Below are positions 3,456 through 53,755 of a stretch of DNA of 64,000 nucleotides, one piece after another. The translations under genes were made by a program, and so were the position numbers. The stretch comes from Dictyostelium discoideum. Taxonomy: Eukaryota. The notes under the pieces were generated by a model. That model did not search any database. It worked only from the letters and a program-made list of their open reading frames with translations, and was not told the origin of the DNA. The stretch lies in NCBI GenBank assembly GCA_000004695.1, contig CM000152.2:4544001-4608000 (forward strand), in the 5' to 3' direction. The stretch's first letter is position 1; every line of letters begins with the position of its first letter.

Positions 3456-3668
3456 ATGTTATGCTTTAATGATTTTAATTTTCCAAAGGAATGGGAAGTA
3501 GTACCAAATTCATTCAAATATATTGATATAGTAATAAAAGAAATAATTGGTTTTGGTTTAATCAAAGAAAATGATCAAGAATTAAAAATGATTGTAAATC
3601 AAGCCATTTCAATTGCTGCTTATTTTTGGCCATATGCAAATGAAGAACAAATGGTAATGGGAGGGTTA

Positions 3669-3715
<47 letters not shown>

Positions 3716-4845
3716 TAAATATTAAAAAAAAAATATAACAATAATAAATAAATAAAATAAAATAAAATTTTTTTTTTTTTTAAAAACTAATATTTTCGAA
3801 AATTATAATTATTACTATTATAGGTCAGTACTGTGTTGGTGTGTCTTATTTGATGATCCACTAGATACAAATAAATTAGATGAAAAAAAAGGTTTAGAAA
3901 TTGTTAGTAGAACAGAGAAATTACTTTTAACTAGAACTTTACCAAATAACCCCACAAATCTTGAAAAGTATGGATTTACAATTTTTGAAAAATGTTTAAA
4001 ATATTGTGGAACCAATACTCATATGTATGACATGTTAATTAAATTAACAGTTCAGTGGATTTATTCTATAATTCCATTCAATAAATTAAATGTAAGTAAT
4101 TTTTTTTTATTTTTTTTATTTTTAAATTAATAAAATAAAAAAAAAAAAATTAGAAATTAATATTAAAACTGTTAATTTTAAAATAGGAATCACCAGTTCA
4201 CCCAGAAACCCTAAAATATATAAGAAAAATAAATATTGGTATAGAATTCACTGTAAGTTTATTTATTAATTTTTTTTATATTTTATTTATTTAAGAAACG
4301 GTTTAGATTATTAATAATGCAATATTTTTATTAATTTTTATTAGCAATCAATATTTTATATAATAAATTCAAATAATAAAGTTGATTTGATAGTTTTGGC
4401 AAATCCTTTATATCAGAAATTGGTTGATTTAAGTTCATTAAATATTTCGTTTGTTAATGATGCAGCAAGTTTTTGTAAAGAAATAAAAGATGGCGGTAGT
4501 GATAATAATTTATTTATTATTTTAATGAAAAGATTAGGTGGTATTGAATTTATTAAAGAAGCATATAAACAATTAACAGATTTATCAAATGGATACATAG
4601 ATGAATTTTGTTATTATGAGAAATTATTACTTTCAAGTCTTTCAAAACAACAACAAAATGAAATTCAAATCTTTATTGACCACCTAAAATATTTAATGAA
4701 AGGAAATCAAATATGGTCAACCAAAACAATAAGATATGCAACGGAAGATCATCCAATTATTCAATTAAGAAATTCAACTAATAAATTAATTGAAAATAAT
4801 ATTAATATGGATAAAGTATCATTAACAAATAAAAACTATATTTAA
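3456..4845 (+). CDS. Class I terpene synthase. Four exons: join(3456..3664, 3824..4091, 4187..4252, 4345..4845), about 348 aa
   Basis: Aspartate-rich DDxxD-type motif VLFDDPLD in exon 2. NSE/DTE motif NDAASFCKE (NDxxSxxxE) in exon 4. Introns carry GTTAGT/GTAAGT donors and TAG/AAG acceptors with conserved phase. Size and motifs match the Dictyostelium microbial-type terpene synthase family. Confidence 0.8.
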
Positions 4846-6104: not shown

Positions 6105-7239
6105 TTAATTTGAAGAACCAGATGATAATATTACACTTTTAATCGAGTCAACCCATTTTTGAGGATTATGAGCAACATCTTCTAAAAGATATTTTCTTTT
6201 TGGAGTTTTAATAACGAAATTATTGTTTGATTTTAATTTTGGTTTTATTGAATCGGACCATGGAATTTCGCCTTTAAGTTCCATTTTCTTTGGATCTATA
6301 TAAATTAATCTTGGTGTATCAGTTAAAATTAATTGTCTCTTTTTTATAGAGAAACCTTTACGTTTCCAAACTAAACCTTGATAAATGACATTTTCACCAT
6401 TATTTAACCATTTACTAATATTATTACTACTACTACCACCATCTCTACTACCGCCACTACTACCACTACGTTGAGTTGGTTGTTGAGATGATGACGATGA
6501 CGATGATCTTGGTGTTGATAAATTTCCATTACTAATATTAAGGTTATTACTACTATTACTATTACTATTACTATTACTAATATTATTGCTACTACTATTA
6601 TTATTATTATTTATATTATTTATATTATTATTATTATTATTATTATTATTACATGAATTTTGTTGATGATTTTCATCAACATTATTATTTCTTGGTGTTG
6701 TACAATCTAAAGATGGTGAAAATAATTCATCACCATCGAAAATGATTTTTTCTTGAGGTGGTTGAATTGGTGGTGGTGGGTGAGACATATTTGATAAAGA
6801 GGACCAATTGAAATCTTGAAAGAATGGATGTGCTTTTAGGTTATCAAAACCACCAGGTGTTGAACTTGAACCTAAACGATCAGTTGGTTTAATTACTAAT
6901 AGTTTTTCAACTAAATCTTTAATCACTGGATTCATATTGATTGGATAAACCAATTCTCTATTCGATACTTTTTGAAATGTTAAAAATTCAGTTTTACCAC
7001 GAAATGGCACTCTTCCACTTGCCATTTGATATATAATACACCCTAATGCCCATAAATCTGAATCAGTTGATGTCTCTTTATTACTAATTAATTCTGGTGA
7101 TACATATTCTGCTGTACCAACAAATGAATTATTTCTTGTTAATTTTGGTATTTCTGTTGTTTTTATATTATTTATATTTGCATTTATATTTGTATTTATA
7201 TTTGTATTTGTATTTGTATTTGTATTTGAACCTGCCGCT

Positions 7240-7289
<50 letters not shown>

Positions 7290-8331
7290 TGTTGTTGTTG
7301 TTGTTGGTTGTAAATTTGGTGATATCATTGAGTCTGTGGTACTTGCACTATCCACACTACTTGTTCTATTTTGTTGTTGTTGTGTTAAATCAGTACTAAC
7401 TGATAAATTATTTACATTATTTAATAAACTACTTAAATTACCAGAACTATTTGTTGGTAATTGTTGTTGTTGTTGCTGCTGTTGTTGTTGCTGTTGTGAT
7501 GATTGTGGTGGTGGTAAAATTTTACCAGTACCAAAATCAGTAATTTTAACATGTAAATCACTAGACATTAAAATATTTTCAGGTTTTAAATCTCTATGAA
7601 CAATACCTAATGAATGTAAATGCTCTAATCCACTTATAATTTCCGCTACATAATATTGACATGATCTATAATCAAATGATCCAACTTTTTTAATTTGATG
7701 TAATAAATCACCTTGTGAACATAATTCTAAAACATAATCTTTATAAAATAAAATAAAAATAAAAAAAAAAAAAATTAGTATTTTTTAATTCTTATATGAA
7801 CACATTAAGAATATAATTAAATTAATAATAAAAATGAAATTAATTTGATATTATTAATTAGCTAATTAATTAATTAATTAATTAATTAATTAATTAATTA
7901 ATTCTTACATAAACATTGTTCAGATCTAAAAGTAAAAAATAATTTTACAATATTTGGGTGATTTGATTTACAAAAGATTTCTTTTTCAATTTGTACATAT
8001 TTTATTTTATTTTCTTTAATGATTTGTTTCTTTTCTAATATCTTTATTGCGTATTGTTGTTGTGTTTCTTTTTCTGTGCCTAAAACCACTGCACCATAAG
8101 ATCCTTCTCCTAAAACTTTACCAATTATAAAATCTTCAATAGTTTTCTTTTTAGCTGATTGAATAGATGGTGATGATAATGATGGTGATGATAAAAATGG
8201 TGAAAGTGACATATTTAAATCAATTGCTGATGCTGTTGCAGTAGTGGTTGTTGTATTATTAGGAGGATCAGTTGATGATGATGGTACACCACCACCACCA
8301 CCACCACTCGTATTTGTAATAACAATATTTT

Positions 8332-8335
<4 letters not shown>
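6105..8335 (-). CDS. pdkA: 3-phosphoinositide-dependent protein kinase 1 (PDK1) homologue. Two exons: 7909..8335 and 6105..7738, about 687 aa
   Basis: Kinase subdomains are present: GxGxxG-like GEGSYGAV, VAIK-like YAIKILEK, HRDLKPEN, DFG, and SPE/DLWALGCIIYQM. A C-terminal PH domain is present (WKRKGFSIKKRQLILTD...). The exon junction restores FTFRSEQCLYYVLELC, matching the PDK1 core. The intron carries a (TTAA)n microsatellite. The symbol is inferred from size (about 686 aa) and is not proven. Confidence 0.75.
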
Positions 8336-9202: not shown

Positions 9203-11374
9203 ATGACAATTCCATATAAAATTTCATATTTTTTAATATTTTTTACGATACCACTTATGGGATCATTCCTATTATTATTTATAAGATTTCTATTCCTAGA
9301 AAATAAACATCATATAAGGAATTTTAATTATAATGGTGATAATAATAATAACAATCGAAATAAGAAATTAAAAAAGTATTTCATATTATCATTATTTTTA
9401 TATACATCAGCTATAATTGGATTCATTTTCACTTTATCATCATTTTCAAGTTGGAATTATTTACCTATAGAATTAACAACTATTACTTCAATAATAATAT
9501 TATTATTTTTTACATTTTATCAATTAATAATTCAATTTGAAGTTGAAAGAAAGAAACGAATTTTTAAAGTTAGAAAAAATAAAAATAAAAAATATTTCAT
9601 TCAAAGCCCACCAAATTTTAATAATGGTATAATTTTAAATAATAATAATAATAATAATTATGAAGATGATAAATCAAATATTAAAGAAAATATATTATTA
9701 GAATCATTAAATAGTAAACAAGATGGAGTAGTAATAGCAGCAGCAGAAGAAGAATATTATGAACAAGAGGAAGAAGAAGAAGAAGAATATAATGAAAATA
9801 AATCATTTTATAATTATAGTAATCAAATTGATACAAAATTAGGAATTTTAGATAGATTTAAAAAGAAGATAATTTATTTTATAAAGGATATTATAGAGAC
9901 TATTAAATTTAAACCAAAATTATCAATAACTTTAATATTGATATCACTTTTAATTTCAATAATGATACCAGTACTTTTGAATGATGTTTGTATTTGTTCA
10001 CATCCAATGAATGTTTCAACATCATTCACTAGAAAACTATTTCAAGAATCTTATTGTAAAAATGGTGAAATCTGTTTCCTTTATTTAACATTACCCAAAG
10101 ATGCATCAACATCAATGGTTTTACAAATTCATACATTTAATAAACCATCAAATATTATAATTACAATAACAAAGAATACTAATACTACTGGTGGTGGTGG
10201 TGGTGGTGGTGGTGGTAGTGGTGAAGATATTATATCAATTTCAAAATTTAATTTCATATCAATGTCAAAAATAATTAATGATTATCCAAGATATATAAGT
10301 TATATTGATTTAATTGGATTAAAAGAGAATACAAATTATAGTTTTAAAGTTAATTTCACAAGTAAAGAAATTCAAAAAACTTTAAATACTTATGATGGTG
10401 TAAATCTATTTCAATTTAAAACATTTTCAAATCAATCAGATTCAATCATTAAATTTGTATCTGGTGGTGATATAGTAATAAATAAAGATTCAAAAGATTT
10501 AGCAAAACATGCATCAATTAATTTTAATCCTGATTTCATTGTTGTTGGTGGTGATGTGGTTTATGAAGATGGTATAGGTTCATGTTATAAAAGATGGGAT
10601 GAAAAATTATCATTTTTCAATACTTATTTTAATTTAAAAATTAGTAATAATAATAGTAGTAGTAGTAGTAGTTTATTTTTAAAACCAATATTATTATCAA
10701 TTGGTAATCATGAGGCTGGTGCATTTTATCAAACTCATAAACAAGTACCATTTTATTTTAAATATTTCTTATTTGAATTGGATGGATTTAAAGATGGAAT
10801 TGATGAAAATAAAAACTCTTATCATATTCATAAAATTGCATCACATACATCAATAACTTCATTGGATAGTTGTGTAGTATCGACATGGGATCAACAAGCT
10901 CAATGGTTACATAATCAATGGAGTAATGAGGAATTCAATAATACAAATAAATTAGTAGTTTATCATCATCCAATTTATCCTGCTTGGAATTTGGATGGTT
11001 TAATACCAGAGTCTGGTAGAGATGTAATGATACCATTATTCGATAAATTTAAAGTACCTTTTGTTTTTGAAAATCATGAGCACCTTTTTAGACGTACAAA
11101 GAAATTAAAAGGAAATAAAATAATAGAGAATAATTCTACAACAACAACGACAACATTATCTCAAGGTACTTATTATGCTGGTTCAGGAAGTTTTGGTATT
11201 TCAAATACAAATATAATTCCATCCAATAATGATGAGTCATTACCTTGGTATTTAGCTAAAAGATCTTATTGTAATCATCTTTGGTATATAACTGCAACTC
11301 AAAAAGAAATTCTCGTTGAGGCATTTGCACCAAATGGTGATAAAATTGATAAAATTAATTATATTCAAAATTAA
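9203..11374 (+). CDS. Membrane-anchored calcineurin-like metallophosphoesterase (purple acid phosphatase-like), 723 aa
   Basis: N-terminal transmembrane helices. C-terminal metallophosphatase motifs are present: GGDIV...VVGGDVVYEDG (GDxxY), GNHEAG (GNHE), VVYHHPIYP, and ENHEHLFRR (GHxH-like). Confidence 0.7.
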   Translation: MTIPYKISYFLIFFTIPLMGSFLLLFIRFLFLENKHHIRNFNYNGDNNNNNRNKKLKKYFILSLFLYTSAIIGFIFTLSSFSSWNYLPIELTTITSIIILLFFTFYQLIIQFEVERKKRIFKVRKNKNKKYFIQSPPNFNNGIILNNNNNNNYEDDKSNIKENILLESLNSKQDGVVIAAAEEEYYEQEEEEEEEYNENKSFYNYSNQIDTKLGILDRFKKKIIYFIKDIIETIKFKPKLSITLILISLLISIMIPVLLNDVCICSHPMNVSTSFTRKLFQESYCKNGEICFLYLTLPKDASTSMVLQIHTFNKPSNIIITITKNTNTTGGGGGGGGGSGEDIISISKFNFISMSKIINDYPRYISYIDLIGLKENTNYSFKVNFTSKEIQKTLNTYDGVNLFQFKTFSNQSDSIIKFVSGGDIVINKDSKDLAKHASINFNPDFIVVGGDVVYEDGIGSCYKRWDEKLSFFNTYFNLKISNNNSSSSSSLFLKPILLSIGNHEAGAFYQTHKQVPFYFKYFLFELDGFKDGIDENKNSYHIHKIASHTSITSLDSCVVSTWDQQAQWLHNQWSNEEFNNTNKLVVYHHPIYPAWNLDGLIPESGRDVMIPLFDKFKVPFVFENHEHLFRRTKKLKGNKIIENNSTTTTTTLSQGTYYAGSGSFGISNTNIIPSNNDESLPWYLAKRSYCNHLWYITATQKEILVEAFAPNGDKIDKINYIQN

Positions 11375-11468
11375 TTATAATAAATTCCAATTTTTAATAA
11401 AAATTAATTTTTTTCAATCAACTATAAAACATTTTATTTTAAAAGATATTTTTAATTCATAATATTTT

Positions 11469-11501
<33 letters not shown>

Positions 11502-12004
11502 ATAAACAAATAATAAAAATAATATTTCAGATTTTTTTTTTTATTATTTTATTTTTTTTTTTCTTGGGTTCGGGATTATTTTTTTTTTTTTGGGTTTTGG
11601 CCTAGGAATACAAAAAAAAAAAAAAAAAAAAAAGAGATAAAAAAAGAGGAAAAAAAAGAGATAAAAAAAAAGAGATAAAAATTAAAATGTAAATTAAATT
11701 TTTATATTTTTTTTATTAAAAATAAAACTCCAAGTTTAATTAATTGCCACCTTTTTTTTTAATTTTATCTTTTCTTTTCAATTTTTTTTTTTTTTTTTTT
11801 TAGGGTAAAATTTCTTTGTTTTTAAAATTAAATTATTTTTAAATTTAATAAAAAAAAAAAAAAAAATTATGGATGTTTGGAATTATCTTGAGCTTATTAA
11901 ATTTATTTTTTATGTTTTAATGACTATATAAATGACATTCACCACTTTTTTATTTATTTTTAACAAAATTTAATTTTTTGTGTTTTTTGGTTTTTGTGCG
12001 CCCC

Positions 12005-12047
<43 letters not shown>

Positions 12048-12536
12048 CGAACAAAAAATAAGGAAAAATTTTCACATCTTAATTTTCTCTGCCTTATGAA
12101 ATCTTCACAATAAAAAACTCCATCCTAAAATGTTTCTAAATAAATAAACCTATTTTTTTTTTTATTTATTTTTTTATTTTTATTTTGTTACGTAATGATT
12201 ATTGGCAATGTTGTTACAAGGATGGGATCTTAAGAATGAATAGCTATTGGAACAGCGGCAGACGACCATTTGCCCGCAGTAGGTTTTTTATTTTTTACAC
12301 TTTCTATATTCTAACTTCGAATAATATATAATTTAATTATAGCTATCAACCACAAAATTTTTAAAAATAATAAAAAATTATAAATAATGTTTTTTTATTT
12401 TTTATTTTTTTTTTTTTTATTAAATAAGTTACTTTATTTTAAAATAAATTATAATAATAATAATAATAATAAAAATAATAATAATAATAATAAAAAAAAT
12501 AATAATAATTTTTTAAAAAATTTCATTCAACATCAA

Positions 12537-15500
12537 ATGGGTTTTAAAGTAAATAAAAATTTAAATGAAACAAATGACAATAGTGATAATGATGTTGCAA
12601 TTATTGGTATTGGATTTAGATTACCATCAGGTAATTTAAATAAATCAAATGATTCTCCAATTATTTTATGGGATAATTTAATGAAAGGATTTGATGGTAT
12701 GGTTGAAACATCAGAAAGATGGAGTGATAATTTCAATCAACTTGGTGAAATTTCAAATAAAAGTGGTGGATTATTACCATTAGATGAATGGAAATCATTT
12801 GATCCATTATTTTTCGGTATTAACCCATCAGAAGCTCAAACAATTGATCCTCAACAAAGAATACTATTAAAATGTACATGGGAGGCAATAGAGGATTCAA
12901 ATATTGATCCAATTAAAATTCGTGGTTCAAAAACATCAGTTTACATGGGTGGTACTTCTGTTGAATATAAAGAATTAAATAAGAATTCAAATGAAATTAA
13001 TCCAAATATTTTTGGTTCAACATTTAATACAATTGCGAATCGTATTTCATATTGTTTTGATCTTAGTGGTGAGTCTATGACATTAGATACTGCTTGTTCA
13101 TCATCTTTAAATGCAATTATCTTAGGTTATCAATCAATTAAAAGTGGTACTTCCAATTTATCAATTGTTGGTGGTGTTAATTTAATATTAGGTATGTAGT
13201 TTTATTAAATTATATAATACATATGTATATATTCATTTTTAATTACTAATAATTTTAAATTTAAAAAATAGATTCAAATTTATCAAAATCTTATTCTTAT
13301 TTAAATATGTTAAGTAAGAAAGAAGGTAAATGTATGTCATTTGATTCACGTGCAGATGGATTCGTTAGAAGTGAGGGTGCTGGTGTATTTATATTAAAAA
13401 GTTTAAAACAATCAATAATTGATGGTAATAATATTTATTGCGTTATTAAAGGAGCAAGTTCAAATATTGATGGTAATGGTTTAAATGATAAACAAAACTT
13501 TTATTCACCATCATCATCTTCACAAGCTGAAAATATTAATAGAGCACTATCATCAACTAAAGGATCTGTAAAAATTGATGATATTGTTTATGTAGAAGCA
13601 CATGGTACTGGTACACCAACTGGTGATCCAATTGAGTTAGAAGCAATTTCAAGAGTTTTCAAAACCAATAATAATGATAATAATAATCAACAACACCAAA
13701 ATCCAATATTAATTGGATCATTTAAAAGTTCCGTTGGTCATTTAGAATCAGCCTCAGGTTCAGCATCATTAGTAAAATGTTGTTTAATGTTTAAAAATCA
13801 ATATTTAACACCCAATGTTAATTTCAAAACACCAAATCCATCAATTAAATTTGATGAATGGAATTTAAAAGTTGTTACAGAACCAATACAATTTAAAGAT
13901 GTAAAGAAATCAAACAACTTTTCAATGATTTTAAATAATTTTGGTATCACTGGTTCAAATTGTTGTTTAATTTTATCACAATACAATGGAAACCATAATG
14001 ATGAACAGGAAAATCAACAACAACAACAACAACAAGGAAAACAATATTTAATTCCATTTTCAGCAAATTCAATACAATCATTAAAACAATATGAATCATT
14101 AATTAATGAAAATCAATTTAAAGAATCAAATGATTTTAAAGAATTTGTTAAACATCAAATATATAGTAAATCAATATCACTTTATCAACGTTCGGTTTCA
14201 ATAGCATCAAATTGGAATGATTTTAATGAAGGCATGAAATCAACAAATAACAACAATAATAAAACACAAACATCAAATTCAAAATCATCAAATATTTCAA
14301 TAATTCCAAAGAATCCAATCACTGTAATGGTATTTGCAGGACAAGGTTCACAATATAGTACAATGGCAATGGAATTATATAATAATGAACCAATATTTAA
14401 AGAATCAATGGATAGATTAGATAATAGATTATTAAGATATTATGGATACTCTGTATTGGAGAAATTTAGATCAAGCTGTGATAGTGATAGTATTCATTAT
14501 CCAACAATTGCTCAACCATCAATGTGTATGCTAACCATATCATTATTCGAATTATATAAACATTGGGGTATTGAAACATCATTTATTATTGGTCATAGTT
14601 TAGGTGAAATTCCAGCTGCTTATTGCTCAGGTATGATTTCATTAGATACTTTATGTTTTTTGATTTATCATAGATCAGTTGCACAAACTCATACACATCG
14701 TAATGGTAGAATGTTATCAATTAATATTAGTCCTGAAGAATATAATTCAAATTATTCATTAAAATACCCAAAAGTTGAAATTGCATGTTATAATTCACCA
14801 ACTTCGATTGTACTTGGTGGTGAAGAAACAATATTAAATCAAATATCAAATGATTTAAAAGAAAAAGGAATATTCTCAGCGATGTTAGGTTCACTATCAT
14901 CATTCCATACATCAAGCCAAAGAATTATTAAAGACCAAGTCATTGATTTAAATATTGAATGTAAATTAGCAAAAATTCCATCATTTTCAACAGTTACAAC
15001 CAATTTATTCAATGAAACGACATTATTCAATTCAGAATATATTTTTAATAATATGGCTCTACCAGTTAAATTTTCACAATCAATTTCAAATCTATTTAAA
15101 CATATTGAAATAAATAATTTAGGAAGTGATATTGTTTTCATTGAATTAGCACCACATCCAACATTACAATTTTATTTAAAACAAATGGCATCATCATATG
15201 AAAAAGTCAATTCAAATTTAAAAATATCAACATATTCACCACTTCACAAGAAAAAGAATGATATCGAAGAGATTCAAAAAACAATTTCACAACTTTATTG
15301 TAATAATGGGTACAGTATTAATTTTAAATCACAATTTAATAATGATTTTAAAATTAATAAAATCAATTCAATATTACCAAATTATCAATGGGAAGATGTA
15401 ATTCACTGGAGAGAAGATTTAATTCATCAAAAACATAATACTCAAGGACCACCAATTGATCAACTTGGTTTATCATTAATTGAAAGTTCACCAAATTTAA

Positions 15501-15809
15501 AATCATATCAAACATTTATTGATATTTCTAGAAAACCATTCCAATATCTTAAAGGTCATTTTGTGAATGGCAAATATTATTTCCCAGGTTGTGGTTATAT
15601 TGATAATCTTTTAAAAATTTATGGTTCACAAGATTTTACAATTGCTTCAATGGAATTTAAATCACCATTAATTTTTACGGAAGGTGTTAGTCAATGTTTA
15701 CAAACAAACATTTTCCAAACTGGTAAATCAGAATTCAGAGTTAACTATCATTTTAAAGATACAAAATCAAATGAATGGATACAATCATCAGTTGCTCATT
15801 TCCAATTAT

Positions 15810-15879
<70 letters not shown>

Positions 15880-18800
15880 TAGTGACGATGGAAATAGTAC
15901 CAATAAAAAATATAATATTGAAGATATTATAAATAATAAATGCAATTTCACAAAATTATCAAACAATGAACTTTATGAAAATATTAAATCAAAAACTGGT
16001 ATATATTATACTGGAGAATTTAAAACAGTATCAAACCTTTATGTGGGTGAAAATTGTTCATTAGCAGAAATACCAATAACAATTAAATCTTATGAATCAT
16101 CATTTTTCTCACCATCAATATTAGATACTTGTTTACATGGTACAATTGGATTAATTGATGAAAAATCTCAAATTGTATTTGAAAGAGTTGAAGGATTCGA
16201 ATACCATTCTTCAAATATTCCATCACAAAATGAATTATCATCATTAAAACATACAAAGCTATATTCATTAACAGAATCATTCAAAAGGGTTGGAGATTCA
16301 TATTCAAGTTCAATTACAGTTATGTTGGAGGATGGTAGAGTTTTAATTGAATTTAAAAAGGTTGTATGTAAATCTTTAACTAATGTTATTGATTCATTAA
16401 TAATACAATCACCATTAAATGAATTATATTCAACATGTATGCAAACAATTGATTCACCAATTCAACCTTCTTTATCATCATCATCATTGATACAACTACT
16501 TGGCAACACCAATGAAAAAGTTAAAATTAATTATAGTCAATTCATTTCAAATCAATTGTATTACAATATAATTAAAAGATGTCCACAACTTAATATTGAA
16601 ACAATCAAATCAAAGAATATTGAACAGTTAAAAGAAAGTTACAACTCTTTAAATACTAAATATTCAAAATTATTCAAATCAGTATTTGAAACAATTCAAT
16701 CGATTGGTATAAATAATGAAGATAATAGTGAATTTAATGAAACAAACATTCAGCATTATAAAATCTTATTGAAATCAACTAGAATAATTGCAAAATTATT
16801 ATTCCCATTAAAAGATGATGATTTAAGTAAGGATACAGGACAATCATTATTTGAAAATGGAATTTTAGATGAATTCAATTCAAATTATTTTAATAATAAT
16901 AATCAAGTTATTAGCAACATAATTAAAGAATCACTTTTACCAATATTAAATGAAAAGATGGTATTCAGAATATTTGGATTTGGAGGTTTTGGATCATCAT
17001 TATCATCAGTTGTTTTAAATAAAATCAATGAATTACTTCAAGAATTTCCAAATAGCGAAATTGATATAGAATTCACTCATGCTGATATTTCATCATCATC
17101 ATCTTCTTTTGGTAGTAGTACACCAAATTTCAAACCAAATTTCCCACAAATAAATGAAAAAGTTCATATAATTTATAAATCATTAGATCTTGAAAAACAA
17201 TTATCAAGTGAACAAATGATTAAACCATCATATTATGATTTTGTAATCATGTCAAATGTTTTACATTTTACAAAAGATGTTAAATCGGTATTGGATCAAA
17301 TCCATCAAATTTTAAAACCAAATGGCCAAATTATATTAGTAGAACCTATTAATAAATCAATTTTACTTGATAATATATTTGGTATTTTCGATCAATGGTG
17401 GAGTTTTACAGATTTAAATATTAGAAGAAATGATTGTTATATTTCAAAAGATACTTGGAATAGCTTACTATTAGATTGTAATTTTGATAATAGTAAAGTT
17501 TTAATTTCAACAAAAGAAATTTCAAACTTTTATATAATTCAAACTCAAAAACCTTCAATTTCAAATTTAAATACAAATTCAACTACAAATGGTGATACAG
17601 TTATAATCTATGGTGATGAATTAAAATTTATAAGTTCTGATAGTAATAAAGAAATTAAAATTTCAAATATTCAACAATTTAATGAATTAATTGAAAAATC
17701 AATAATAACAGATGAATCAATTATTTACTTTACAAAATCAACAAATCAATTAACAGTAGATAATTTCAAATTAGTAACATTGGAATATATTCAAATCAAT
17801 CAAAAACTATTATCAAATAATTTAAAATGTAAACATGTATTGATTACATTAAATTCTGACAATATGAATTATTTATCAGCATCATTAATAGGAGCAACTA
17901 GATATTTTGAAGAATTTCCACAATTAAATTTATTCAATTTAGATTTCGATCAAAATTCAATAAATAATAATGAATTAGAAAAAACAATTAAATTGTTATT
18001 AGATTCAAACCAATTCATTCAAAAAGAATTCTTTATAAAGAATAGTAAAGTTTATTACGAAAGATATAAGAGAGAATTGAATTTAAATAATTTCTTTAAA
18101 GAATCCCAATCATTTTCAAATGAAAAGAACCAATTATACGCAAAATTATCACCAAATTTAGAATATATTTTAAAATCAAAAAAGGTTATAAAAGATGATG
18201 AAATTGAAGTAGAAGTAAAAGCAACAGGTATTAATTATAAAGATTATTTAATTTATTGTGGATTAGTATCAGCTGAATCAATTAATCGTTATGGTGATGT
18301 TAATAATCCTGAATTTGGTATTGAATACTCTGGTATTATTTCACGTATTGGTAATAATATAACAAATTTTGAAATTGGTGACCAAGTTTATGGTATGGGA
18401 TTAGATACAATTTCAACTCATGTAATTGTAAATCCAAACTATTGTTATCATAAACCAACAAATATCAGTTTTCAAGAAGCAGCATCAATACCATGTGTTT
18501 ATTTAACATCATTATGCTCAATATTTAATATTGGATGTTTAAGTGTTAGTGGTAATGAATCAATTTTAATTCATTCAGGTACAGGTGGTGTAGGATTATC
18601 AGCATTGAATATATTAAAATGGAAAGGTCATAAATCTCATGTATTTGTAACAGTAGGTTCAAAAGAAAAAGAAAAATACCTACTAGATACATATGGTGAT
18701 TTTATAACTGGAATTTATTCAACAAGAAATAAAAATTATGTTGAACAAATTAAATTAAAATTAAAACAATTAGGATCAAATAAGAATGGTGTAGATTTAA

Positions 18801-21616
18801 TATTGAATACATTATCAAGTGATTATATGGAATCAAATTTCAAATGTTTAAATACAAGTGGTAGAATTGTAGATTTATCTGTGACTCATTTAAATCATAA
18901 TGAATATATTAATAATAATAATTTTAAATTCAATTTTGGTTATCATAATTTTGAATTAACATTTATTAATAAATTTTTAATTCAAAAATCATTAAAGAAA
19001 ATTAAAATTGGAATTGAAAGCGGTGAATTAAAATTAATACCAATAACTGCATATTCAAACTCAAATGCAAAAGAAGCAATTGAATTTATTAATCAACGTA
19101 AACATATTGGTAAAATAGTTTTAAATAATGATAATGATATTTTAGATTCATTATTTAATAATCTTTCAAATGAAAGAAATTCAAAATTTACAACTCTTAA
19201 ACCAAATTATCAAATAAATAAAGACCATTTGGGTTCAAATATAATAGTTACAGGTCAATCTGGTATAATTTTAGAGATTTTAAAATGGATTGTTAAATTT
19301 TCAGAAAATGTTAAAAATATTATTATATTATCAAAATCATCTATGAAATGGGGTTTGGAATTATTAATTAAAAAGAATAAACATATAAATTTCAATTTTA
19401 AGAGTATTGATATTGGTGATTCAAATCAAGTTGATAAATCAATTGATGAAATTTTAAATGAAAATTCAATAACAAATATTGATTCAATTTTTCATTTTGC
19501 ATTCGAACATACTATATGTGATGTAAATGATATTGAAATTAATCATTTGACCAAATCTCATGGTGCAAAAACAATGGGTGCAATTAATTTACATAATCAA
19601 TCAATTAAAAGAAATTGGAAATTAAAACAATTTATTTTATCATCATCAGTAACATCGATGATTGGTTCAACTGATCAATGTACATATGTTTGTTCTAATA
19701 GATTATTGGATTCATTATCAAAGTATAGAAATTCTATTGGATTACCTTCAATATGTACAAACTATGGGTCAGTACAATCTGCAGGTATTGTTTCAAGAAA
19801 TAAATCTATTGAAAAATTATTAGATGCTCAAGGTTTAGATCCATTATCAATTAATATGATATTAGGTTCATTAGATTCACAAATTCAAAATGTAAACAAA
19901 TCAACAAATTTAATGGTATCACCGTTCAATTTTAATAATTTCTTTGAAACTTTTAAAAATCATTCAATGATTCATAAATTTGATTTCATTACAAATCTTT
20001 TAGAAAATAATAAATCAAAAAATAGTAATAATGGTAATACAGAAGGAGAATCAAATATTGATACATTATTTTTAAATAAAGTTTCAGAATTATTATCAAT
20101 GGAATTACCAAAGATTAATCAGGATTTGAAGTTGGTGGAGTATGGTTCAGATTCATTATTAATTGTTCAATTAAAAAATTGGATAGATAAAGAAATCTTT
20201 CCAAATTTAATTACAATTCAACAACTTCAAACTAATACAATTTCATCATCAATTAAAATCATTACAAATCAATTTAATTCTAAATCAACTGATGGTAGAA
20301 AAAAACAAAAACAAAATGGAATTAATGTTTCATCAAATAAATCATCATTACCAACTTTAGAATTTTGGAAAAATGAAACTAAACTTGATGAAGAAGAATT
20401 TAATTTTATATTAGATTCTTCAACCAAATCAAAAATAAATCATAAAGATCAATTAAAAGATAATGAAAAAAGAATTCTTTTAACTGGTAGTACTGGATTT
20501 TTAGGTGCATACCTACTTTGGCATTTAATTCAAATGGACAATTGTAAAATTGTTTATTGTTTATTAAGAAACAAAAAACTATTTAATAATCCATTAAATG
20601 ATATAATAGATAATTTAAAACATCATCAATTATATGATAAACAATTAAATGAAAGTCATTTATCAAAAATTGTTGCAGTTGTAGGTGATTTATCAAAAAT
20701 TAAATTTGGTTTATCAGATGATAATTATTCATTACTTTCAAATGATACAAATTTATTATTAAATTGTGGTGCTGATATTAATTTATCATCAAATTATGAA
20801 GAGTCAAAACAAGTAAATGTAGTTGGTACAAAAGAAATGATAAAAATATCATTAATTGGTAATATAAAACCAAAACCAATTATTACAATCTCATCATTTT
20901 CAGTATTTTATAATCAAAAGTTAAATCAAGAGTTTGATGAATCAATTGTTACACCAAAACTTGAAACGATTAATGATTTACCAGCAGGTTATATTCAAAG
21001 TAAAGTTATTTCAGAAATTATATTAACAGAAGCATCATCAAGATTCAATATACCATCAGCAATAATCAGAGCACCAAGTATTTTCTCAAATCCTGAAACT
21101 GGTATTGGTCATAGTGCTGATATCATTCAATTAATGTTACAATCTTGCTTTAAATTAGGTTATTACCCAAGTGGTAATGGAGTTGATTTTGATCTTCTTT
21201 GTTCACCAATAACATGGGTCGCTGATAATACTATTAAAATTATTTTTAATGATAATATTATTAACAACAAAGAACCTCAACAATTAACATCACCATTAAA
21301 ACCAAATATTTACAGTGTATATGGAAAAGTTTTAGATTTATTTGAGATTTTACAAGTATTAAAGAGTGATGAAGGTGGCAATTGTAAAGAAATTGAAATT
21401 AATCAATGGAAGCAAATGGTAATGGATTCAAAAGAAAAAGCATGTATTAAATTAAGAACTTTTCACACTTTACAATTTGATGGTAGAAATATTTTAAATA
21501 AAGGTCATGGAATTTCAAATAAACAAAAATCATATCTACAATCAATTGGATCTTTTGGAAATGGTGGTGAAATCACTAATCAAATGATATTCAAGAATGT
21601 TCAATCAAATAATTAA
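12537..21616 (+). CDS. Type I iterative highly reducing polyketide synthase, KS-AT-DH-cMT-ER-KR-ACP-R. Two exons: 12537..13195 and 13274..21616, about 3000 aa
   Basis: - KS: active site DTACSSS around 13090, and EAHGTGT.
- AT: GHSLGE around 14596.
- DH: HxxxGxxxxP-like [16 protein letters not shown].
- cMT: SAM motif IFGFGGFG and VLHFTKDV...[11 protein letters not shown].
- ER: [17 protein letters not shown].
- KR: [13 protein letters not shown] and YVCSN.
- ACP: EYGSDSLL.
- Terminal SDR-type thioester reductase: [14 protein letters not shown].
- Single intron GTATGT...AATAG immediately after the KS catalytic Cys region.
- An (AAT)23 poly-Asn insertion lies in the DH region. Confidence 0.9.
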
Positions 21617-21970: not shown

Positions 21971-22041
21971 TGCGTATGCTGGGAATCGAACCCAGTTCGC
22001 ATCCGTGGCAGGGATGCATCATACCACTAGACCACATACGC
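21971..22041 (-). tRNA. tRNA-Gly (anticodon GCC), 71 nt
   Basis: The reverse complement folds as a cloverleaf: acceptor GCGTATG/CATACGC, anticodon arm CATCC-CTGCCAC-GGATG, T arm CTGGG-TTCGATT-CCCAG, discriminator A. A B-box-like GTTCGGAATTC about 30-40 bp downstream (plus coordinates about 21931..21942) is consistent with a Dictyostelium ex-B box. Confidence 0.85.
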
Positions 22042-23933: not shown

Positions 23934-24006
23934 CACCCATTGTGGGTCTCGATCCCACGACCTGCAGCTTAGAAGGCTGCCGCAATTCCAACTTTGCTAA
24001 ACGGGC
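23934..24006 (-). tRNA. tRNA-Arg (anticodon UCU), 73 nt
   Basis: The reverse complement is GCCCGTT-TA-GCAA-AGTTGGAA-TTGC-G-GCAGC-CTTCTAA-GCTGC-AGGTC-GTGGG-ATCGAGA-CCCAC-AATGGGT-G. All four stems pair, with two G-U wobble pairs in the acceptor stem. The anticodon loop is CTTCTAA. Confidence 0.8.
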
Positions 24007-27378: not shown

Positions 27379-28542
27379 TTGTTGGTGAAAGTCATGTCAT
27401 CAACTACTACTCCTTCAAAGAAAGCCATCCGTAAAGCCAAAGTGTCTTCCACCGCCAAACGTGCCGCTGAAGTGACAACCGCCTCCGATGATGCTATTAC
27501 TGTTCAAGTAAAATCAAAAAAGACTCTTCGTCCCACTGAAGTTGATGATGAAATTTATTCAACTGAAAGCACTGATGTATCCGACGTCGAAGTCAGAGAG
27601 AAAGTGCCAAAGAAATCAAAGACCAATTCCATTGAAGCTAAAACCATTGACGCTTTAAAAAATGCTGCCACTGCTGTCATCTTCATGAATCTCTTTACCA
27701 TCCACTGCTCCCAGAATGGTGTTGAACCAACCTTGAAGACCATTATGGACAATGGTGCTGCATCAAATGAATTATTTCAATTGCTTCAACCTACCCACAA
27801 TGAATCAGTTAAGAACAACGATAAAATTGAAGGTGAAACATTGAAGAAGCTAATCCACCGTAACTTTAGATCCAAGACTTTGGTTCCATTCAAAACTGAC
27901 TACGAAGCTGCCAACACTAAAGTAGTCGAAGCTATTAACCATCGTAACTGCTACTCAGCCCAAGATGTTATAAAAAACATCGAAGCCATTATGAGTTACC
28001 ACAATGTAATTAATCCGGTGTATCTCATCCATGGTACTGCTGAAGTTCAATTAGAGTATCTAAGATCAATTTTAGATAATAATATCCTTGCTTTGTTAAA
28101 GATGGTCGTACCAGACTGGTTACAAACTGATGTTGCAATCAAACTCAACACTCAAACCGATATCACCGAGTGTCGTGAAGCCATCACCGAGTTGGTTCTT
28201 AACAATGCTGATAAGTTCTCGAGAAGAAGACCTTCCGATTCCGCATCGAATACTGATGAGAAGTTTCCATTAAAAAAGAATCATGCTACTCCAAATCATA
28301 ACTCTCATAACAGGAATTCCTTTGATGCTCAAGCTGATAAGATTAGAGCTGCAATATTACCCGAAATAAGAAAAGACTCTAAGGTAGACCTCAAAAAGAT
28401 AAGAAGCAGTTTCATCGTTTACCGTCAAAGCAAAGGCTACTGTCTCAATTGTGGTAAATCAAATCACTCCACATCTACATGTAGAATTGATCCGGTCGAT
28501 GCCAAAGCCAATCCAGGTCCATCAGCCAAAAAGCAACAATGA
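27379..28542 (+). CDS. Skipper-like Gag (387 aa) with a C-terminal CCHC zinc knuckle
   Basis: The motif CLNCGKSNHSTSTC (CX2CX4HX4C) lies near the C-terminus. The ORF ends in TGA at 28540..28542. Codon usage is less AT-biased than host genes. Confidence 0.85.
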   Translation: MLVKVMSSTTTPSKKAIRKAKVSSTAKRAAEVTTASDDAITVQVKSKKTLRPTEVDDEIYSTESTDVSDVEVREKVPKKSKTNSIEAKTIDALKNAATAVIFMNLFTIHCSQNGVEPTLKTIMDNGAASNELFQLLQPTHNESVKNNDKIEGETLKKLIHRNFRSKTLVPFKTDYEAANTKVVEAINHRNCYSAQDVIKNIEAIMSYHNVINPVYLIHGTAEVQLEYLRSILDNNILALLKMVVPDWLQTDVAIKLNTQTDITECREAITELVLNNADKFSRRRPSDSASNTDEKFPLKKNHATPNHNSHNRNSFDAQADKIRAAILPEIRKDSKVDLKKIRSSFIVYRQSKGYCLNCGKSNHSTSTCRIDPVDAKANPGPSAKKQQ

Positions 28543-31500
28543 CTCGATGAAGGTGATGAGTCCAAGTCAAAGATTTTAAATAAAAATTATAAAATTTCTC
28601 AATATCATCACCTTGAGGATAATGATTACCCAGTGAACAAAGATTCACTTTATACTCTTAACTCTTTTTATAATCAAAACATTGTTAAACAGTTACATCA
28701 ACAAAGCCAGCAACATGATGTTCATAAAAACATCAACAAACTTAAAGAATACGTCAAAGACTCATATGGTATAAAACTAGTTCCTGATACAACCGTTCCA
28801 ATTCCAAAAGCTGTTGAATCAGAGATGAAGTATAAACCACAGAAGATTGAATTTAATACTCCAACAGAGTTAACAAATGTTCAAGATAAAAACTATACTG
28901 TAAACATATTCAATCGTCCAAAGATATTAAATTCTAGTAAAGAATTAATTAACGATGAAGAAGATGAATTGCTTTACACAATTAAATTCGATAAAGAAAC
29001 AAACAAACCAATCATCTCATTATTACATAGTACTGGTACAAGTGATACTGCTCTCATTCCGACTCTCAAATGTTTAATCGTTCCAAACAGAGAAAACATG
29101 GATAAACCCAAGATTATAATTAACTCTCATTCCAAAGAAAAACAATTCAAATTAATTCTCGATACTGGAAGTAATGTTAGTTTAATCAATAAGAGGTTGA
29201 TTTCAAAAGATATGAAGAACCACGTTCACAAAACGAAAGCCAAGATTAACTTCCCGCTACTAGACGTCAAAGAAGAGTTTGTTGAACAAATCAATATACA
29301 AGTTAACAATGAAATTCATAACTTCTTTATTATAGAATTGGATATCATTGATGTACTTTTCGGTAATGATATCCTTAAGGACTCTATCATTAACCAAAAA
29401 GATAAAATAATCAAGTTGAATAATAGTACATACAAAATTAATTATCAACAGTCGAATCAATTACATTGTAATGTAAAAGCTCCAAGAAAACATGTTACCG
29501 TATCCAATGATAATCAGTCACAGTCACATAATCTACTAGATGATGATGAAGATATCAAAGAACAAGTTACAAAGTTTGTTGAAAGCATCCCATCACAACT
29601 TTGTGATATACTGGTTAAAACTAATCCAGAAGAAGAAGAGATACAAGCAGTACGTGATTTCATTAATGATTCATTCGAAGATGTTATAGTAGATAAACTT
29701 CCTGATATTCCAGATCAGATTAACAATTCCAGAAGAGGTAATATCATACATAATATCATAATAAAGAAAGATCAAGATGTTGAACCAACAAAGAAACAAA
29801 TCTATTATTCAACAGATGATCATAAGAGACATGTCGAAGAAATGGTTCTCAAATTTATAGATTTAGGTATTATCAAAAGATCAGAATCAAATTACTCATC
29901 TCCAATCATGTTATTAAAGAAGAGAGATTCATGGCGTGTAGTCCACGACTATCGTCAACTAAATAAAGTCACTGTTAGAGACGATCATCCATTCACTCCG
30001 GTTGATAGTCTTTTAAATCAATGTAAAGATTCAAAGCTTTTCTCAAAGTTTGACATGATTATGGGTTATTTCCAAGTGTTAATTAATCCAGAACACGCAA
30101 AGTACACCGCTTTCATTACACATATTGGTAAATTTGAATATACTAGAATGCCACAAGGTTTAGTCAACTCTCCATCCACATTCGCCAGATTGATGGTCGA
30201 AATATTTGGAAAAATCAAAAGTTTATTACAATACTTTGATGATCTTTTGGTTCATTCAAAACTCGACTACATGGTACATTTCATTGAAATCATTAGAATG
30301 CTTCTATATTGTAGAAAGTACCTATTATTCATTTCAAGAGAAAAGAGTGAAATGTTAAAGACTGAAGTTGATTTCCTTGGTTTTCACATTCATAAAGATG
30401 GTATATCTCCAAGAGCTGCAAAGGTTAGAGCTATCTCTGAGTTACCTGAACCAAGAAACGCCAAAGAAGCTGAAGCTGCATTAGGTCTTTTTGGATTCTT
30501 CAGGAGACACATTGAAAATTACGCTGAAAAAACCTATCACCTTTCCAAAGAATCAAAAGGAAAAAACAAGAAAACACTTTCTGATGAATCACTCAAAGAA
30601 TTCAATAATCTAAAGAAAGAGTTTGAAGGTGAAAATATTGTCGCTATTCCAATTGAACAAGATAACTCCATACCAATAGATATCGAAAAGGTTAAAGCAT
30701 CAACAGACATGCCAATCCATTCAGATAATAATAATCTAAACAATGGTAGTTTTCACTTGTATTGTGATGTTAGTGATAAAGCATTATCAGGTGTATTATA
30801 TCAAATTCAAGGTAATAAATTCAAAGTCATTTGGTTTCACAGTAGAAAACTTACTGATACTCAAAAGAGGTACAGCATAGGTGATAGAGAGTTCCTTTCA
30901 ATCATTGATTCTCTAAAGAAGTTTCAACATTTATTAATTGGTAAAAAGGTTTCAATCTACACTGATCACCAAAATCTTACATATATTATCAATAAGTCAA
31001 ACGATAAACCGTTCACAAAGAGACAAGATAATTATATGAAATATATTAAAGAATTTGATTATGAATTAAGACATATAAGTGGTAAAAAGAATGGTATAGC
31101 TGATTTTTTATCTCGTAAATATGATAATTTCCAATGGGATGAATCGTTTTTAAATAAAATTAAGGAAGAACAAATCAATTCTCAATGGCTATTAGAGATG
31201 AAAAAGAATCCAAATTTATGCATTGAAGAAATTAATGATATCTGTTACCTTAGTGAAGATGGGTTCAAGAAATTAATCATCATAGATAAAGAAACTATTC
31301 ATACCGTCATTAGAGAATATCACGATACCAAATATAGTGGTCATCACGCTTTAGATATCACATACAATAATATAAGACAAGATTACTATTTCAAAGAAAT
31401 GTTTTCTATTATCAAGAGGTACATAAAGTCTTGTGCAACATGTCAATTGAACATTAACCGTAAAGATAATGGTATACTCCAAAGTTTAGAAATTCCCTTT

Positions 31501-32826
31501 GAAGTTTGGAGAGATATATCAATCGATTTCTTATCGCTACCAAAAACAATGTATGCAATAAACGGATTTACAGTTGAAGTCGATCAAGTTTGTGTCATTG
31601 TTTGTAGATTATCTAAAATGGTTCATATAGTTCCATGTCATAAGACAATAGATGCCCAACATACCGTTCAATTATTGTTGAATCATGTGTTCAGACTCCA
31701 TGGTTATCCAAGAACAATCGTCTCCGATAGAGATCCAAGATTCCTTTCAGAAATATGGGAGAGATGGGCAAAGACGATGGATTCTAAACTCAAGATGACT
31801 GTGGCACACAGAGCACAAGCTGATGGTCAAACTGAAAGAATGAATAGAGAAATTATTAGAATATTAACTAAAGCCTCAACAGAGTATGGGGAGAATTGGT
31901 CAGATATCATTCCACTTATTGAATTTGCAATGAACTCATCAATGAGCAAGTCTACAAAGATGTCACCATTCCAAATCGTTTATGGATTCAATCCACCAAC
32001 TCCCGTTAATCATTTCAATTCATTAACAAAGACTCGTATACCAATGAGCAACATCAAAAAGATTGTCCGTGATAATATACTAGATGCTCAAATCAATGCT
32101 CAAAAGTATTACAACCGAGGTCGTGGTGATGTTATCTTCGTAGTCGGAGAAAAGGTGATGGTTAAAAGAAAATTCTTCCAAACTAATCTTTCAAAAGATC
32201 TAATCTCTCACAAACTTGAATCCAAGAATTGTGGACCATTCATAATCACTGCCGTTCATGGTAATAATGTAACACTCGATTTAGTAGGTTATCCAAAGAA
32301 ACACAATGTGTTCAACAAAGATCAAATCGTAAAACTATACGAGGACAGTGAGTGGTTAAGAGAAGAGATATCGATGCCGGAACCTGAGGAGATGGACGAA
32401 GCAAGTTACGAAGTTGAAAGTATTCTCAATCACGATAAAGTCAAAAAGATGTACCTAGTGAAGTTCAAAGGTTACCCAGAACCTGAATGGATCAAAGAAG
32501 TCGATACAGACTGTGAAGAGTTAGTCAGAGAGTATTGGAATAACGTGCAGAAGAAACAATTGAACTCAAGAAGAGAAAGAGAGAATGTAACTACAGAAGC
32601 CGTTGAGCCAATTGTGTCACCTCCACTCTCCCAAGAAGTTCAAAGTTCTCAAACATTGCAACCAATTACTCCAAGACAACAAAACTCCATCTCAAATCAA
32701 AGAAACCAATCAAAGAAAAGAAAATCAAGAAATCAAAATACTTCAAGTGATGATGATGAACTTGATCTTAGTTTACAAATTAAAACAACTAGATCAGGAA
32801 GAAAAGTTACACCCAAGAGTTTATAG
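28543..32826 (+). CDS. Skipper-like Pol polyprotein (PR-RT-RNaseH-IN-chromodomain), in the same frame as gag directly after its UGA. Has no ATG of its own (the ORF track start at 28633 is GTG)
   Basis: - Protease LILDTGSNVSL.
- RT motif LQYFDDLLVHS.
- Integrase zinc finger HHALD...CATCQ.
- DDE core (DFLSLP...VDQVCVIVCRLSKMVHIVPCHK...).
- Chromodomain YEVESILNHDKVKKMYLVKFKGYPEPEWIKEVD.
- The frame is open from 28543 onward. Confidence 0.85.
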   Translation, partial: LDEGDESKSKILNKNYKISQYHHLEDNDYPVNKDSLYTLNSFYNQNIVKQLHQQSQQHDVHKNINKLKEYVKDSYGIKLVPDTTVPIPKAVESEMKYKPQKIEFNTPTELTNVQDKNYTVNIFNRPKILNSSKELINDEEDELLYTIKFDKETNKPIISLLHSTGTSDTALIPTLKCLIVPNRENMDKPKIIINSHSKEKQFKLILDTGSNVSLINKRLISKDMKNHVHKTKAKINFPLLDVKEEFVEQINIQVNNEIHNFFIIELDIIDVLFGNDILKDSIINQKDKIIKLNNSTYKINYQQSNQLHCNVKAPRKHVTVSNDNQSQSHNLLDDDEDIKEQVTKFVESIPSQLCDILVKTNPEEEEIQAVRDFINDSFEDVIVDKLPDIPDQINNSRRGNIIHNIIIKKDQDVEPTKKQIYYSTDDHKRHVEEMVLKFIDLGIIKRSESNYSSPIMLLKKRDSWRVVHDYRQLNKVTVRDDHPFTPVDSLLNQCKDSKLFSKFDMIMGYFQVLINPEHAKYTAFITHIGKFEYTRMPQGLVNSPSTFARLMVEIFGKIKSLLQYFDDLLVHSKLDYMVHFIEIIRMLLYCRKYLLFISREKSEMLKTEVDFLGFHIHKDGISPRAAKVRAISELPEPRNAKEAEAALGLFGFFRRHIENYAEKTYHLSKESKGKNKKTLSDESLKEFNNLKKEFEGENIVAIPIEQDNSIPIDIEKVKASTDMPIHSDNNNLNNGSFHLYCDVSDKALSGVLYQIQGNKFKVIWFHSRKLTDTQKRYSIGDREFLSIIDSLKKFQHLLIGKKVSIYTDHQNLTYIINKSNDKPFTKRQDNYMKYIKEFDYELRHISGKKNGIADFLSRKYDNFQWDESFLNKIKEEQINSQWLLEMKKNPNLCIEEINDICYLSEDGFKKLIIIDKETIHTVIREYHDTKYSGHHALDITYNNIRQDYYFKEMFSIIKRYIKSCATCQLNINRKDNGILQSLEIPFEVWRDISIDFLSLPKTMYAINGFTVEVDQVCVIVCRLSKMVHIVPCHKTIDAQHTVQLLLNHVFRLHGYPRTIVSDRDPRFLSEIWERWAKTMDSKLKMTVAHRAQADGQTERMNREIIRILTKASTEYGENWSDIIPLIEFAMNSSMSKSTKMSPFQIVYGFNPPTPVNHFNSLTKTRIPMSNIKKIVRDNILDAQINAQKYYNRGRGDVIFVVGEKVMVKRKFFQTNLSKDLISHKLESKNCGPFIITAVHGNNVTLDLVGYPKKHNVFNKDQIVKLYEDSEWLREEISMPEPEEMDEASYEVESILNHDKVKKMYLVKFKGYPEPEWIKEVDTDCEELVREYWNNVQKKQLNSRRERENVTTEAVEPIVSPPLSQEVQSSQTLQPITPRQQNSISNQRNQSKKRKSRNQNTSSDDDELDLSLQIKTTRSGRKVTPKSL

Positions 32827-34730: not shown

Positions 34731-34764
<34 letters not shown>

Positions 34765-46532: not shown

Positions 46533-46566
<34 letters not shown>

Positions 46567-47572: not shown

Positions 47573-47652
<80 letters not shown>

Positions 47653-47754
47653 GTTATTATTATTATTATTTAGGGTTGGTTCTTCTTGATTATTTATTGG
47701 TATTGATAGATTCGGAGAATATGAAGATTTATCTCTTGGATCTTGTTTTACCAT
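42992..47754 (-). CDS. Full-size ABCG (PDR/WBC-type) transporter, copy 1. Domain order NBD-TMD-NBD-TMD; 4 exons (about 46591..47754, 45860..46530, 44735..45786, 42992..44734)
   Basis: - NBD1: Walker A GTPGCGKST, signature ISGGQKKRVT, Walker B LLLMDEPTSGLDS.
- NBD2: GPSGAGKST, LSVSQRKRVN, ILFLDEPTSGLDS.
- Two six-helix TMD regions.
- Introns carry GTAAGT/GTTTGT donors.
- N-terminal poly-Asn. Confidence 0.85.

Positions 47755-50565: not shown

Positions 50566-50597
<32 letters not shown>

Positions 50598-53668: not shown

Positions 53669-53755
<87 letters not shown>

Follow-up and report, generated by a model that had tools for sequence, protein, structure and literature searches.

Is a polyketide synthase (PKS) gene that ends in a reductase domain and lies near a terpene synthase (TPS) gene the sign of an unusual pathway in Dictyostelium discoideum, or an ordinary member of a large gene family? 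The question arises at a 64,000-nucleotide stretch of chromosome 3 of D. discoideum AX4 (GCA_000004695.1, contig CM000152.2, positions 4,544,001 to 4,608,000; hereafter the window), whose forward strand carries a PKS gene at window positions 12537-21616. An earlier reading made from the letters alone, here called the sequence-only reading, had described this gene as a PKS with a C-terminal thioester reductase (R) domain; with small corrections aside, that observation is confirmed. It is very probable that the locus is the annotated AX4 gene for one of about 19 iterative, fatty acid synthase (FAS)-like, highly reducing type I PKSs that end in a thioester reductase, working by the mechanism proposed below. 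The gene, annotated before this analysis, is a run-of-the-mill representative of the PKS-thioester reductase class of D. discoideum, and the features for which it had been singled out are not unusual.

Domain architecture and catalytic motifs

Domains were called by a Pfam search of the spliced 2999-residue protein (Table 1), and the E-values obtained rule out chance matches. Each domain is present in one copy within the 2999 residues, which makes the protein a single module, and their order is ketosynthase (KS), acyltransferase (AT), dehydratase (DH), C-methyltransferase (MT)-like domain, enoylreductase (ER), ketoreductase (KR), acyl carrier protein (ACP) and R. This is the order given by the sequence-only reading, which had itself proposed Pfam calling on the spliced protein as a check, and the motifs that it quoted were recovered as well, DTACSSS at residues 184-190 and the NAD(P)-binding motif of the reductase at residues 2621-2634. 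The core catalytic motifs, which like the domain set are read directly from the protein, are complete in KS, AT, DH, ER, KR, and ACP, the MT being the exception. The KS has its full Cys-His-His triad, with Cys187 in DTACSSS (nt 13086-13106), His329 in EAHGTGT and His375 in VGHLE, and the AT has GHSLGE with Ser661, the carboxylate-binding Arg686 and SSFH. The DH carries HxxxGxxxxP (His981) and DxxxH (Asp1170) together with the β-hairpin of the family, DTKSNEWI, at residues 1048-1055. Inspection of the motifs found all of those in the reducing loop of DH, ER, and KR intact; the KR carries VTGQSG, which corresponds in type to the motif of the functional Pks16, as well as Tyr2357-xxx-Asn2361. In the ACP motif EYGSDSLL, the DSL serine, Ser2513, is the phosphopantetheine attachment residue.

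The terminal domain

The R domain starts at about residue 2618, right after the end of the ACP at residue 2565, and consists of a Rossmann domain and a C-terminal substrate-binding subdomain. It carries the NAD(P)H-binding loop TGSTGFLG and, for the 2'-phosphate of NADPH, Arg2651 in CLLRNKK, which aligns with CLVRSK of MxaA. In an alignment with 16 homologues (17 sequences), the triad Ser2759/Tyr2792/Lys2796 (YxxxK) provides the sole invariant columns. The closest solved relative by sequence is the terminal R domain of MxaA (E 9e-29), with TGxTGFLG, the Ser and YxxxK all aligned, and further solved relatives include a Streptomyces PKS thioreductase, R domains of mycobacterial nonribosomal peptide synthetases (NRPSs) and carboxylic acid reductases (CARs). 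The fold itself was taken directly from an AlphaFold2 model of the domain (mean predicted local distance difference test score, pLDDT, 82.6; predicted template modeling score, pTM, 0.87), for which Foldseek returned MxaA R and the PKS thioreductase domain 8V1X of S. coelicolor as top matches over about 390 columns (template modeling (TM) scores of 0.75-0.79), followed by CAR and NRPS R domains. Sequence and predicted structure both identify the C-terminal domain as what should be a genuine, redox-competent thioester reductase of the short-chain dehydrogenase/reductase (SDR) type (PF07993), and as neither a thioesterase nor a chalcone synthase. The terminal reductase put forward by the sequence-only reading is thus borne out by the NAD_binding_4 match (E 4e-46), the intact Ser/Tyr/Lys and the MxaA-like predicted fold. 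With motifs and fold of this kind, it is reasonable to expect that the chain is released by reduction, as an aldehyde or alcohol.

It is highly unlikely that the terminal domain is non-reductive, be it of the R* type, acting like a Dieckmann cyclase, or vestigial, with release by hydrolysis or transfer. R-like domains performing non-reductive Dieckmann release do occur in fungal PKS-NRPSs, and within D. discoideum Pks5 and Pks16 yield acids with no terminal domain at all. The catalytic Tyr of the SDR triad is, however, typically missing from R* domains, which are non-redox, and the R* class is rejected here because Tyr2792 is present and invariant among the homologues. Lys2796, Ser2759, the TGxTGFLG loop and the 2'-phosphate Arg, features of a kind that R* domains typically lose, are also kept; the ratio of nonsynonymous to synonymous substitution rates (dN/dS) in the domain is 0.25, and the nearest solved relatives (MxaA R, 8V1X and CAR) are true reductases.

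The methyltransferase-like domain

In the MT-like domain, motif I for the binding of S-adenosylmethionine (SAM), at residues 1450-1461 (nt 16964-16999, forward strand), is degenerate: ExGxGxG has become GxGxFxS, which no longer has the acidic residue and keeps one of the original three glycines. The four D. discoideum paralogues examined differ in this respect, as their motif I has the canonical form FRILE(A/I)G(G/A)G(T/Y)G, for example FRILEAGGGTGS or FRILEIGAGYGT, whereas a second D. discoideum strain shares the identical odd sequence. The Pfam profile Methyltransf_12 (PF08242) is matched here over positions 56-97, as against 1-98 in three paralogues, so that the match is restricted to the C-terminal half and, unlike in those paralogues, the N-terminal half is unmatched. 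We therefore hold with moderate confidence that the MT domain would be unable to bind SAM; since binding is unlikely, the product is probably not C-methylated and an unbranched chain would be expected.

An active MT, with a C-methylated, fully reduced aldehyde or alcohol as the product, is what the sequence-only reading had predicted, and we regard it as a serious possibility that we nonetheless lean against. In its favor, the domain aligns with the C-methyltransferases of CurJ and LovB, sharing with them the His1550/Glu1576 dyad, with the catalytic His in SNVLH and the Glu in LVEP, along with the motif II Asp (THADIS), and its dN/dS of 0.36 is below 1. That value is, on the other hand, the highest among all of the domains, and neither the loss of a motif that four paralogues keep nor the unmatched half of the profile fits an active enzyme. 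Of the predicted product, the reductive release remains reasonable in view of the intact R domain, whereas the methylation is doubtful given the degenerate motif I.

Gene model, identity and conservation

The gene model was rebuilt from the window sequence by splicing two forward-strand open reading frames (ORFs), 12387-13199 and 13307-21616, into one gene of two exons, whose coding sequence (CDS) of 9000 nt translates into 2999 residues with one terminal stop. This CDS coincides exactly with the coordinates 12537-21616 of the sequence-only reading, and the intron, which had been put at 78 bp, measures 80 bp. An in-frame ATG upstream, at 12387, was rejected as the start, as it would merely add an A/T-rich, low-complexity leader; 12537 is preferred because it fits the annotated product length of 2999 residues. 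The window is strongly AT-rich (GC content of 14-38% across 2-kb windows), and its assignment to chromosome 3 of AX4 agrees with the ORF directly 5' of the PKS (9203-11374), which matches DDB_G0281473 of AX4 residue for residue and which the PKS adjoins. A 6.43-Mb chromosome of D. discoideum (GCA_054883475.1) likewise has this PKS annotated, with a product of 2999 residues, and the window protein is identical to that product across the first 2923 residues, the part available from that locus. The gene is probably pks18 (DDB_G0281475, UniProt Q54TW0), and it has been part of the D. discoideum reference annotation ever since the genome paper; the order of gene identifiers (DDB_G0281467, DDB_G0281473) and of UniProt accessions (Q54TW4, Q54TW1) agrees with DDB_G0281475 and Q54TW0.

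In another D. discoideum strain, at about 4% nucleotide divergence, the orthologous frame is open over the 2946 residues covered (annotated product, 2978 residues), with 95.7% protein identity and all motifs kept. Against this orthologue the overall dN/dS is 0.19, the lowest values being those of KS and KR (0.08 each), with 0.25 for R and 0.36 for MT, and the syntenic position is occupied by a product of 2987 residues in one D. cf. discoideum genome and of 2984 residues in another. The open frame and the low ratios, both direct results of the comparison, show an intact gene under purifying selection. A pseudogene was considered and rejected, given the frame open in a diverged strain, the full-length products in three other genomes and the dN/dS of 0.19.

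Two details of the gene had drawn attention in the sequence-only reading. The first was an intron said to follow the active-site motif by a few codons; codon 219, in which it lies, is in fact 31 codons past Cys187 and 28 past the end of DTACSSS. When KS residues 101-330 were compared by tblastn with four other PKS loci, a break or intron read-through exactly between GGV(N/S)LIL and the following D was seen in six other genes, two of them from D. purpureum and four being D. discoideum paralogues. By this sequence comparison the intron is ancestral and family-wide among dictyostelid PKS genes, with nothing special about it. Some D. discoideum PKS paralogues have a second intron immediately 5' of the G-E-x-x-T-x-DTACSSS motif (locus L004, 16106-16190 and 10801-10890), much nearer to the catalytic Cys than the intron of the gene studied here. 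The second detail was a run of 23 Asn residues in the DH; its location in the DH region was correct, and translation gives a length of 22. Since the run is just 5 residues long in the other D. discoideum strain, against 22 in AX4, it is an ordinary length-polymorphic Dictyostelium homopolymer.

Proposed mechanism

The PKS would act as a homodimer with a Pks16-like architecture, in which the AT would load malonyl units onto the ACP, phosphopantetheinylated at Ser2513, and the KS, by means of Cys187/His329/His375, would extend the chain iteratively while KR, DH, and ER reduce the β-carbons. The MT-like domain would probably be a structural remnant that does not bind SAM, leaving the chain probably without C-methyl groups. 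NADPH-dependent hydride transfer in the R domain would then free the acyl-S-ACP as an aldehyde, possibly going on to the primary alcohol. The most likely product, as judged from motifs and predicted fold, would be a largely reduced, probably unbranched chain released as an aldehyde or alcohol. In this scheme it is the iterative use, the chain length, the degree of reduction, the two- or four-electron release and the inactivity of the MT that we infer.

Several points weigh against this account. MT inactivity is deduced from one motif and profile coverage, in a domain where His1550, Glu1576 and the Asp of motif II are all kept and where dN/dS still indicates constraint. The R domain and the KS-AT-DH region, used as queries in homology searches, matched only fragmentary dictyostelid gene models, none of more than about 1900 residues. 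For this PKS gene the searchable literature gives neither a product nor an expression profile nor the phenotype of a mutant. Its sole mention there would be a "pks18" in one microarray table, slightly induced on Pseudomonas aeruginosa (PMC2474670), if that name belongs to this locus.

The neighboring terpene synthase

The rebuilt four-exon TPS model matches exactly DDB_G0281467 (TPS5_DICDI; DdTPS5, a β-pinacene synthase), with the motifs DDxxD (FDDPLD) and NSE (NDAASFCKE). DdTPS5 and the PKS are on the same strand, 7.7 kb from the end of the one to the start of the other, and three unrelated genes separate them, namely rpl29, a PDK1-type kinase with a PH domain and a metallophosphoesterase. 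The kinase is presumably pdkA (DDB_G0281471).

The product of a functional biosynthetic cluster would be a hybrid or co-regulated compound; a polyketide alcohol or aldehyde could, for instance, be linked to the diterpene or act together with it. The shared strand and the short distance are compatible with this, TPS-P450 clusters do occur in D. discoideum (PMC6524965), and another D. discoideum strain as well as two genomes of D. cf. discoideum keep the order TPS/kinase/phosphoesterase/PKS. However, this order belongs to a wider colinearity that includes a glycogen phosphorylase gene and others, and because the whole neighborhood is colinear it is not specific evidence for a cluster. In the published D. 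discoideum TPS clusters, the partner cytochrome P450 gene is immediately adjacent (PMC6524965), whereas here rpl29, the kinase and the metallophosphoesterase intervene. The diterpene hydrocarbon of DdTPS5 is, furthermore, found free, detected as such and unmodified, in the volatile bouquet (PMC6524965), and the neighborhood has no prenyltransferase, P450 or acyltransferase gene. No PKS is present within 10 kb of the closest homologues of the TPS in D. citrinum and D. firmibasis, which are of doubtful orthology. The best D. purpureum match to the PKS (58% identity) has no TPS nearby; it is uninformative on synteny because it lies at a contig end beside another PKS and because D. discoideum and D. 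purpureum share few PKS orthologues (PMC3188802). Between these two species, PKS genes have diversified in a lineage-specific manner (PMC3188802). There is, in sum, no positive evidence for a cluster, which we consider scarcely credible, and the link with the TPS drawn by the sequence-only reading is weak, given the three genes in between and a diterpene that is emitted unmodified. A looser functional pairing behind the conserved neighborhood, in which, for example, a long-chain polyketide aldehyde or alcohol would be made alongside the diterpene or coupled to it in development or in response to bacteria, likewise seems extremely improbable; if true, it would be a PKS-terpene pathway without precedent among amoebozoans.

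Other features of the window

Two tRNA genes (Table 1) lie just 3' of the PKS stop codon, within about 5.7 kb that contain no long ORF. This stretch is followed by an element resembling a long terminal repeat (LTR) retrotransposon, with a GC content higher than its surroundings, in which a gag-like ORF with a CCHC knuckle precedes a pol ORF of 1397 residues. Pfam finds reverse transcriptase, RNase H, and integrase in pol, where a protease-like motif and a chromodomain-like C terminus were also judged by eye, and the element resembles the Skipper family. Further along are two tandem copies of a full-size ABCG-type transporter gene, each split by introns into at least four ORFs and with visibly near-identical proteins, and a separate extended-SDR gene that is unconnected with the R domain of the PKS. 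About 300 bp 3' of a tRNA-Leu gene, a last, GC-rich ORF may be ORF1 of a tRNA gene-targeted non-LTR retrotransposon of the TRE type.

Table 1. Coordinates of the PKS gene, its domains and other features (window positions; residues refer to the 2999-residue PKS)
Feature	Position (nt)	Strand	Residues	Details
PKS exon 1	12537-13191	+		Codons 1-218 and first base of codon 219; N-terminal KS half with Cys187
PKS intron (single)	13192-13271	+		80 bp; GTATGT...TAG; phase 1, interrupts codon 219
PKS exon 2	13272-21616	+		Remainder of codon 219 through stop codon
KS with C-terminal extension	12588-14176	+	18-520	Spans intron; Pfam KS 18-403 (E 4e-65 / 9e-30), extension 406-520
AT	14327-15265	+	571-883	Pfam Acyl_transf_1, E 4e-40
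DH, double hotdog	15524-16390	+	970-1258	Pfam
Poly-Asn run, 22 residues	15812-15877	+	1066-1087	Loop joining the two DH double-hotdog halves
MT-like domain	16814-17566	+	~1400-1650	Pfam MT match at residues 1505-1625
ER	18194-19123	+	1860-2169	Pfam; NADPH motif intact
KR	19235-19777	+	2207-2387	Pfam, E 3e-22
ACP	20030-20311	+	2472-2565	Pfam, E 4e-33
R, terminal thioester reductase	20468-21613	+	2618-2999	Pfam NAD_binding_4 at residues 2622-2870, E 4e-46
Terpene synthase (DdTPS5)	3456-4845	+		Exons 3456-3664, 3824-4091, 4187-4252, 4345-4845; rebuilt four-exon model, 347 residues
Protein kinase gene, two ORFs	6105-8335	-		PDK1 type, C-terminal PH_3 domain; long poly-Gln and poly-Asn runs
tRNA-Gly(GCC)	21971-22041	-		
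tRNA-Arg(UCU)	23934-24006	-		
LTR retrotransposon-like element	27379-32826	+		gag-like ORF at 27379-28542, then pol ORF
Possible further retroelement remnant, ORF	34097-34735			No Pfam match
ABCG-type transporter gene, copy	42992-47754	-		ABC_tran and ABC2_membrane
ABCG-type transporter gene, copy	48822-53860	-		ABC_tran and ABC2_membrane
Extended-SDR gene, partial ORF	60126-60947	+		3-beta-hydroxysteroid dehydrogenase/isomerase family, E 3e-54
tRNA-Leu(UAA)	62291-62373	+		
ORF of 416 residues	62693-63943	+		GC 0.38; no Pfam match

Comparison with known synthases

Resemblance within the family is extensive. All 40 D. discoideum PKSs were modeled with AlphaFold in the 2025 paper on Pks16 (PMC12828403), according to which 21 of the 40 have an offloading domain after the ACP, two of these being chalcone synthases; for the rest, monomeric thioester reductases are given as most likely. 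With about 19 of the 40 ending in it, the R domain is the commonest ending among D. discoideum PKSs, and the notion of the sequence-only reading that only a subset carries one implies a rarity that does not exist (PMC12828403). The reductase-ended PKSs of the species share with the one studied here the order KS-AT-DH-MT-ER-KR-ACP-R, a length of about 3000 residues, the position of the KS intron and the DH β-hairpin DxK(S/T)NEWI, a motif described in PMC12828403. An R domain is likewise found at the end of a paralogue in locus L004, with 37% identity to the one studied here, whose identity to other dictyostelid R domains is only 37-44%. In another D. discoideum genome (GCA_054859385.1), locus L003 has a model of 1175 residues at 10001-14368 with KS, AT, and R but neither reducing loop nor ACP, which probably represents either a PKS pseudogene in decay or a gene model joined in error.

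Functions have been characterized for only three pks genes of D. discoideum, with pks16 as a putative fatty acid synthase (PMC12625978), and assigned products are confined to stlA, stlB, pks5, and the FAS-like pks16. None of these is reductase-terminated, as StlA and StlB end in a chalcone synthase and Pks5 and Pks16 at the ACP (PMC12828403). Dependence on DiSfp, an Sfp-type phosphopantetheinyl transferase, has been shown for the D. discoideum PKS family as a whole (PMC12625978). The product of the PKS studied here would add to a known gap for reductase-terminated synthases, and its sequence gives no reason to favor it over its about 18 siblings. The significance of the locus is slight, the architecture being already described for about half of the 40 PKSs of the species. 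The one new nuance is the degenerate motif I, which makes a methylated product doubtful; a smaller novel point, if true, would be a SAM-blind pseudo-methyltransferase kept as a purely structural element.

Among solved structures, the best relative across KS to ACP is Pks16 (cryo-electron microscopy structure 9NJU, 1559 bits), which shares the type of the KR NADPH motif and the DSL motif of the ACP but has no release domain after the ACP, no DH β-hairpin and an inactive MT (PMC12828403). For the terminal domain, the R domain of MxaA from the myxalamid PKS-NRPS (4U7W/4W4T) and 8V1X share the SDR-type fold with a C-terminal subdomain (TM scores of 0.75-0.79), TGxTGFLG, the Ser/Thr-Tyr-Lys triad and the placement directly after a carrier domain, whereas identity in the structural alignment is 21-25% and both are bacterial ends of modular assembly lines rather than the end of a eukaryotic iterative synthase. 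LovB, a fungal highly reducing PKS (7CPX), follows the same single-module, iterative KS-AT-DH-cMT-ER-KR-ACP logic, and the catalytic region of its MT aligns with that of the present enzyme. In LovB, on the other hand, the last domain is a condensation domain and the ER is inactive, whereas the D. discoideum PKS has an intact ER motif, a reductase at its end and an MT whose SAM site is apparently defective.

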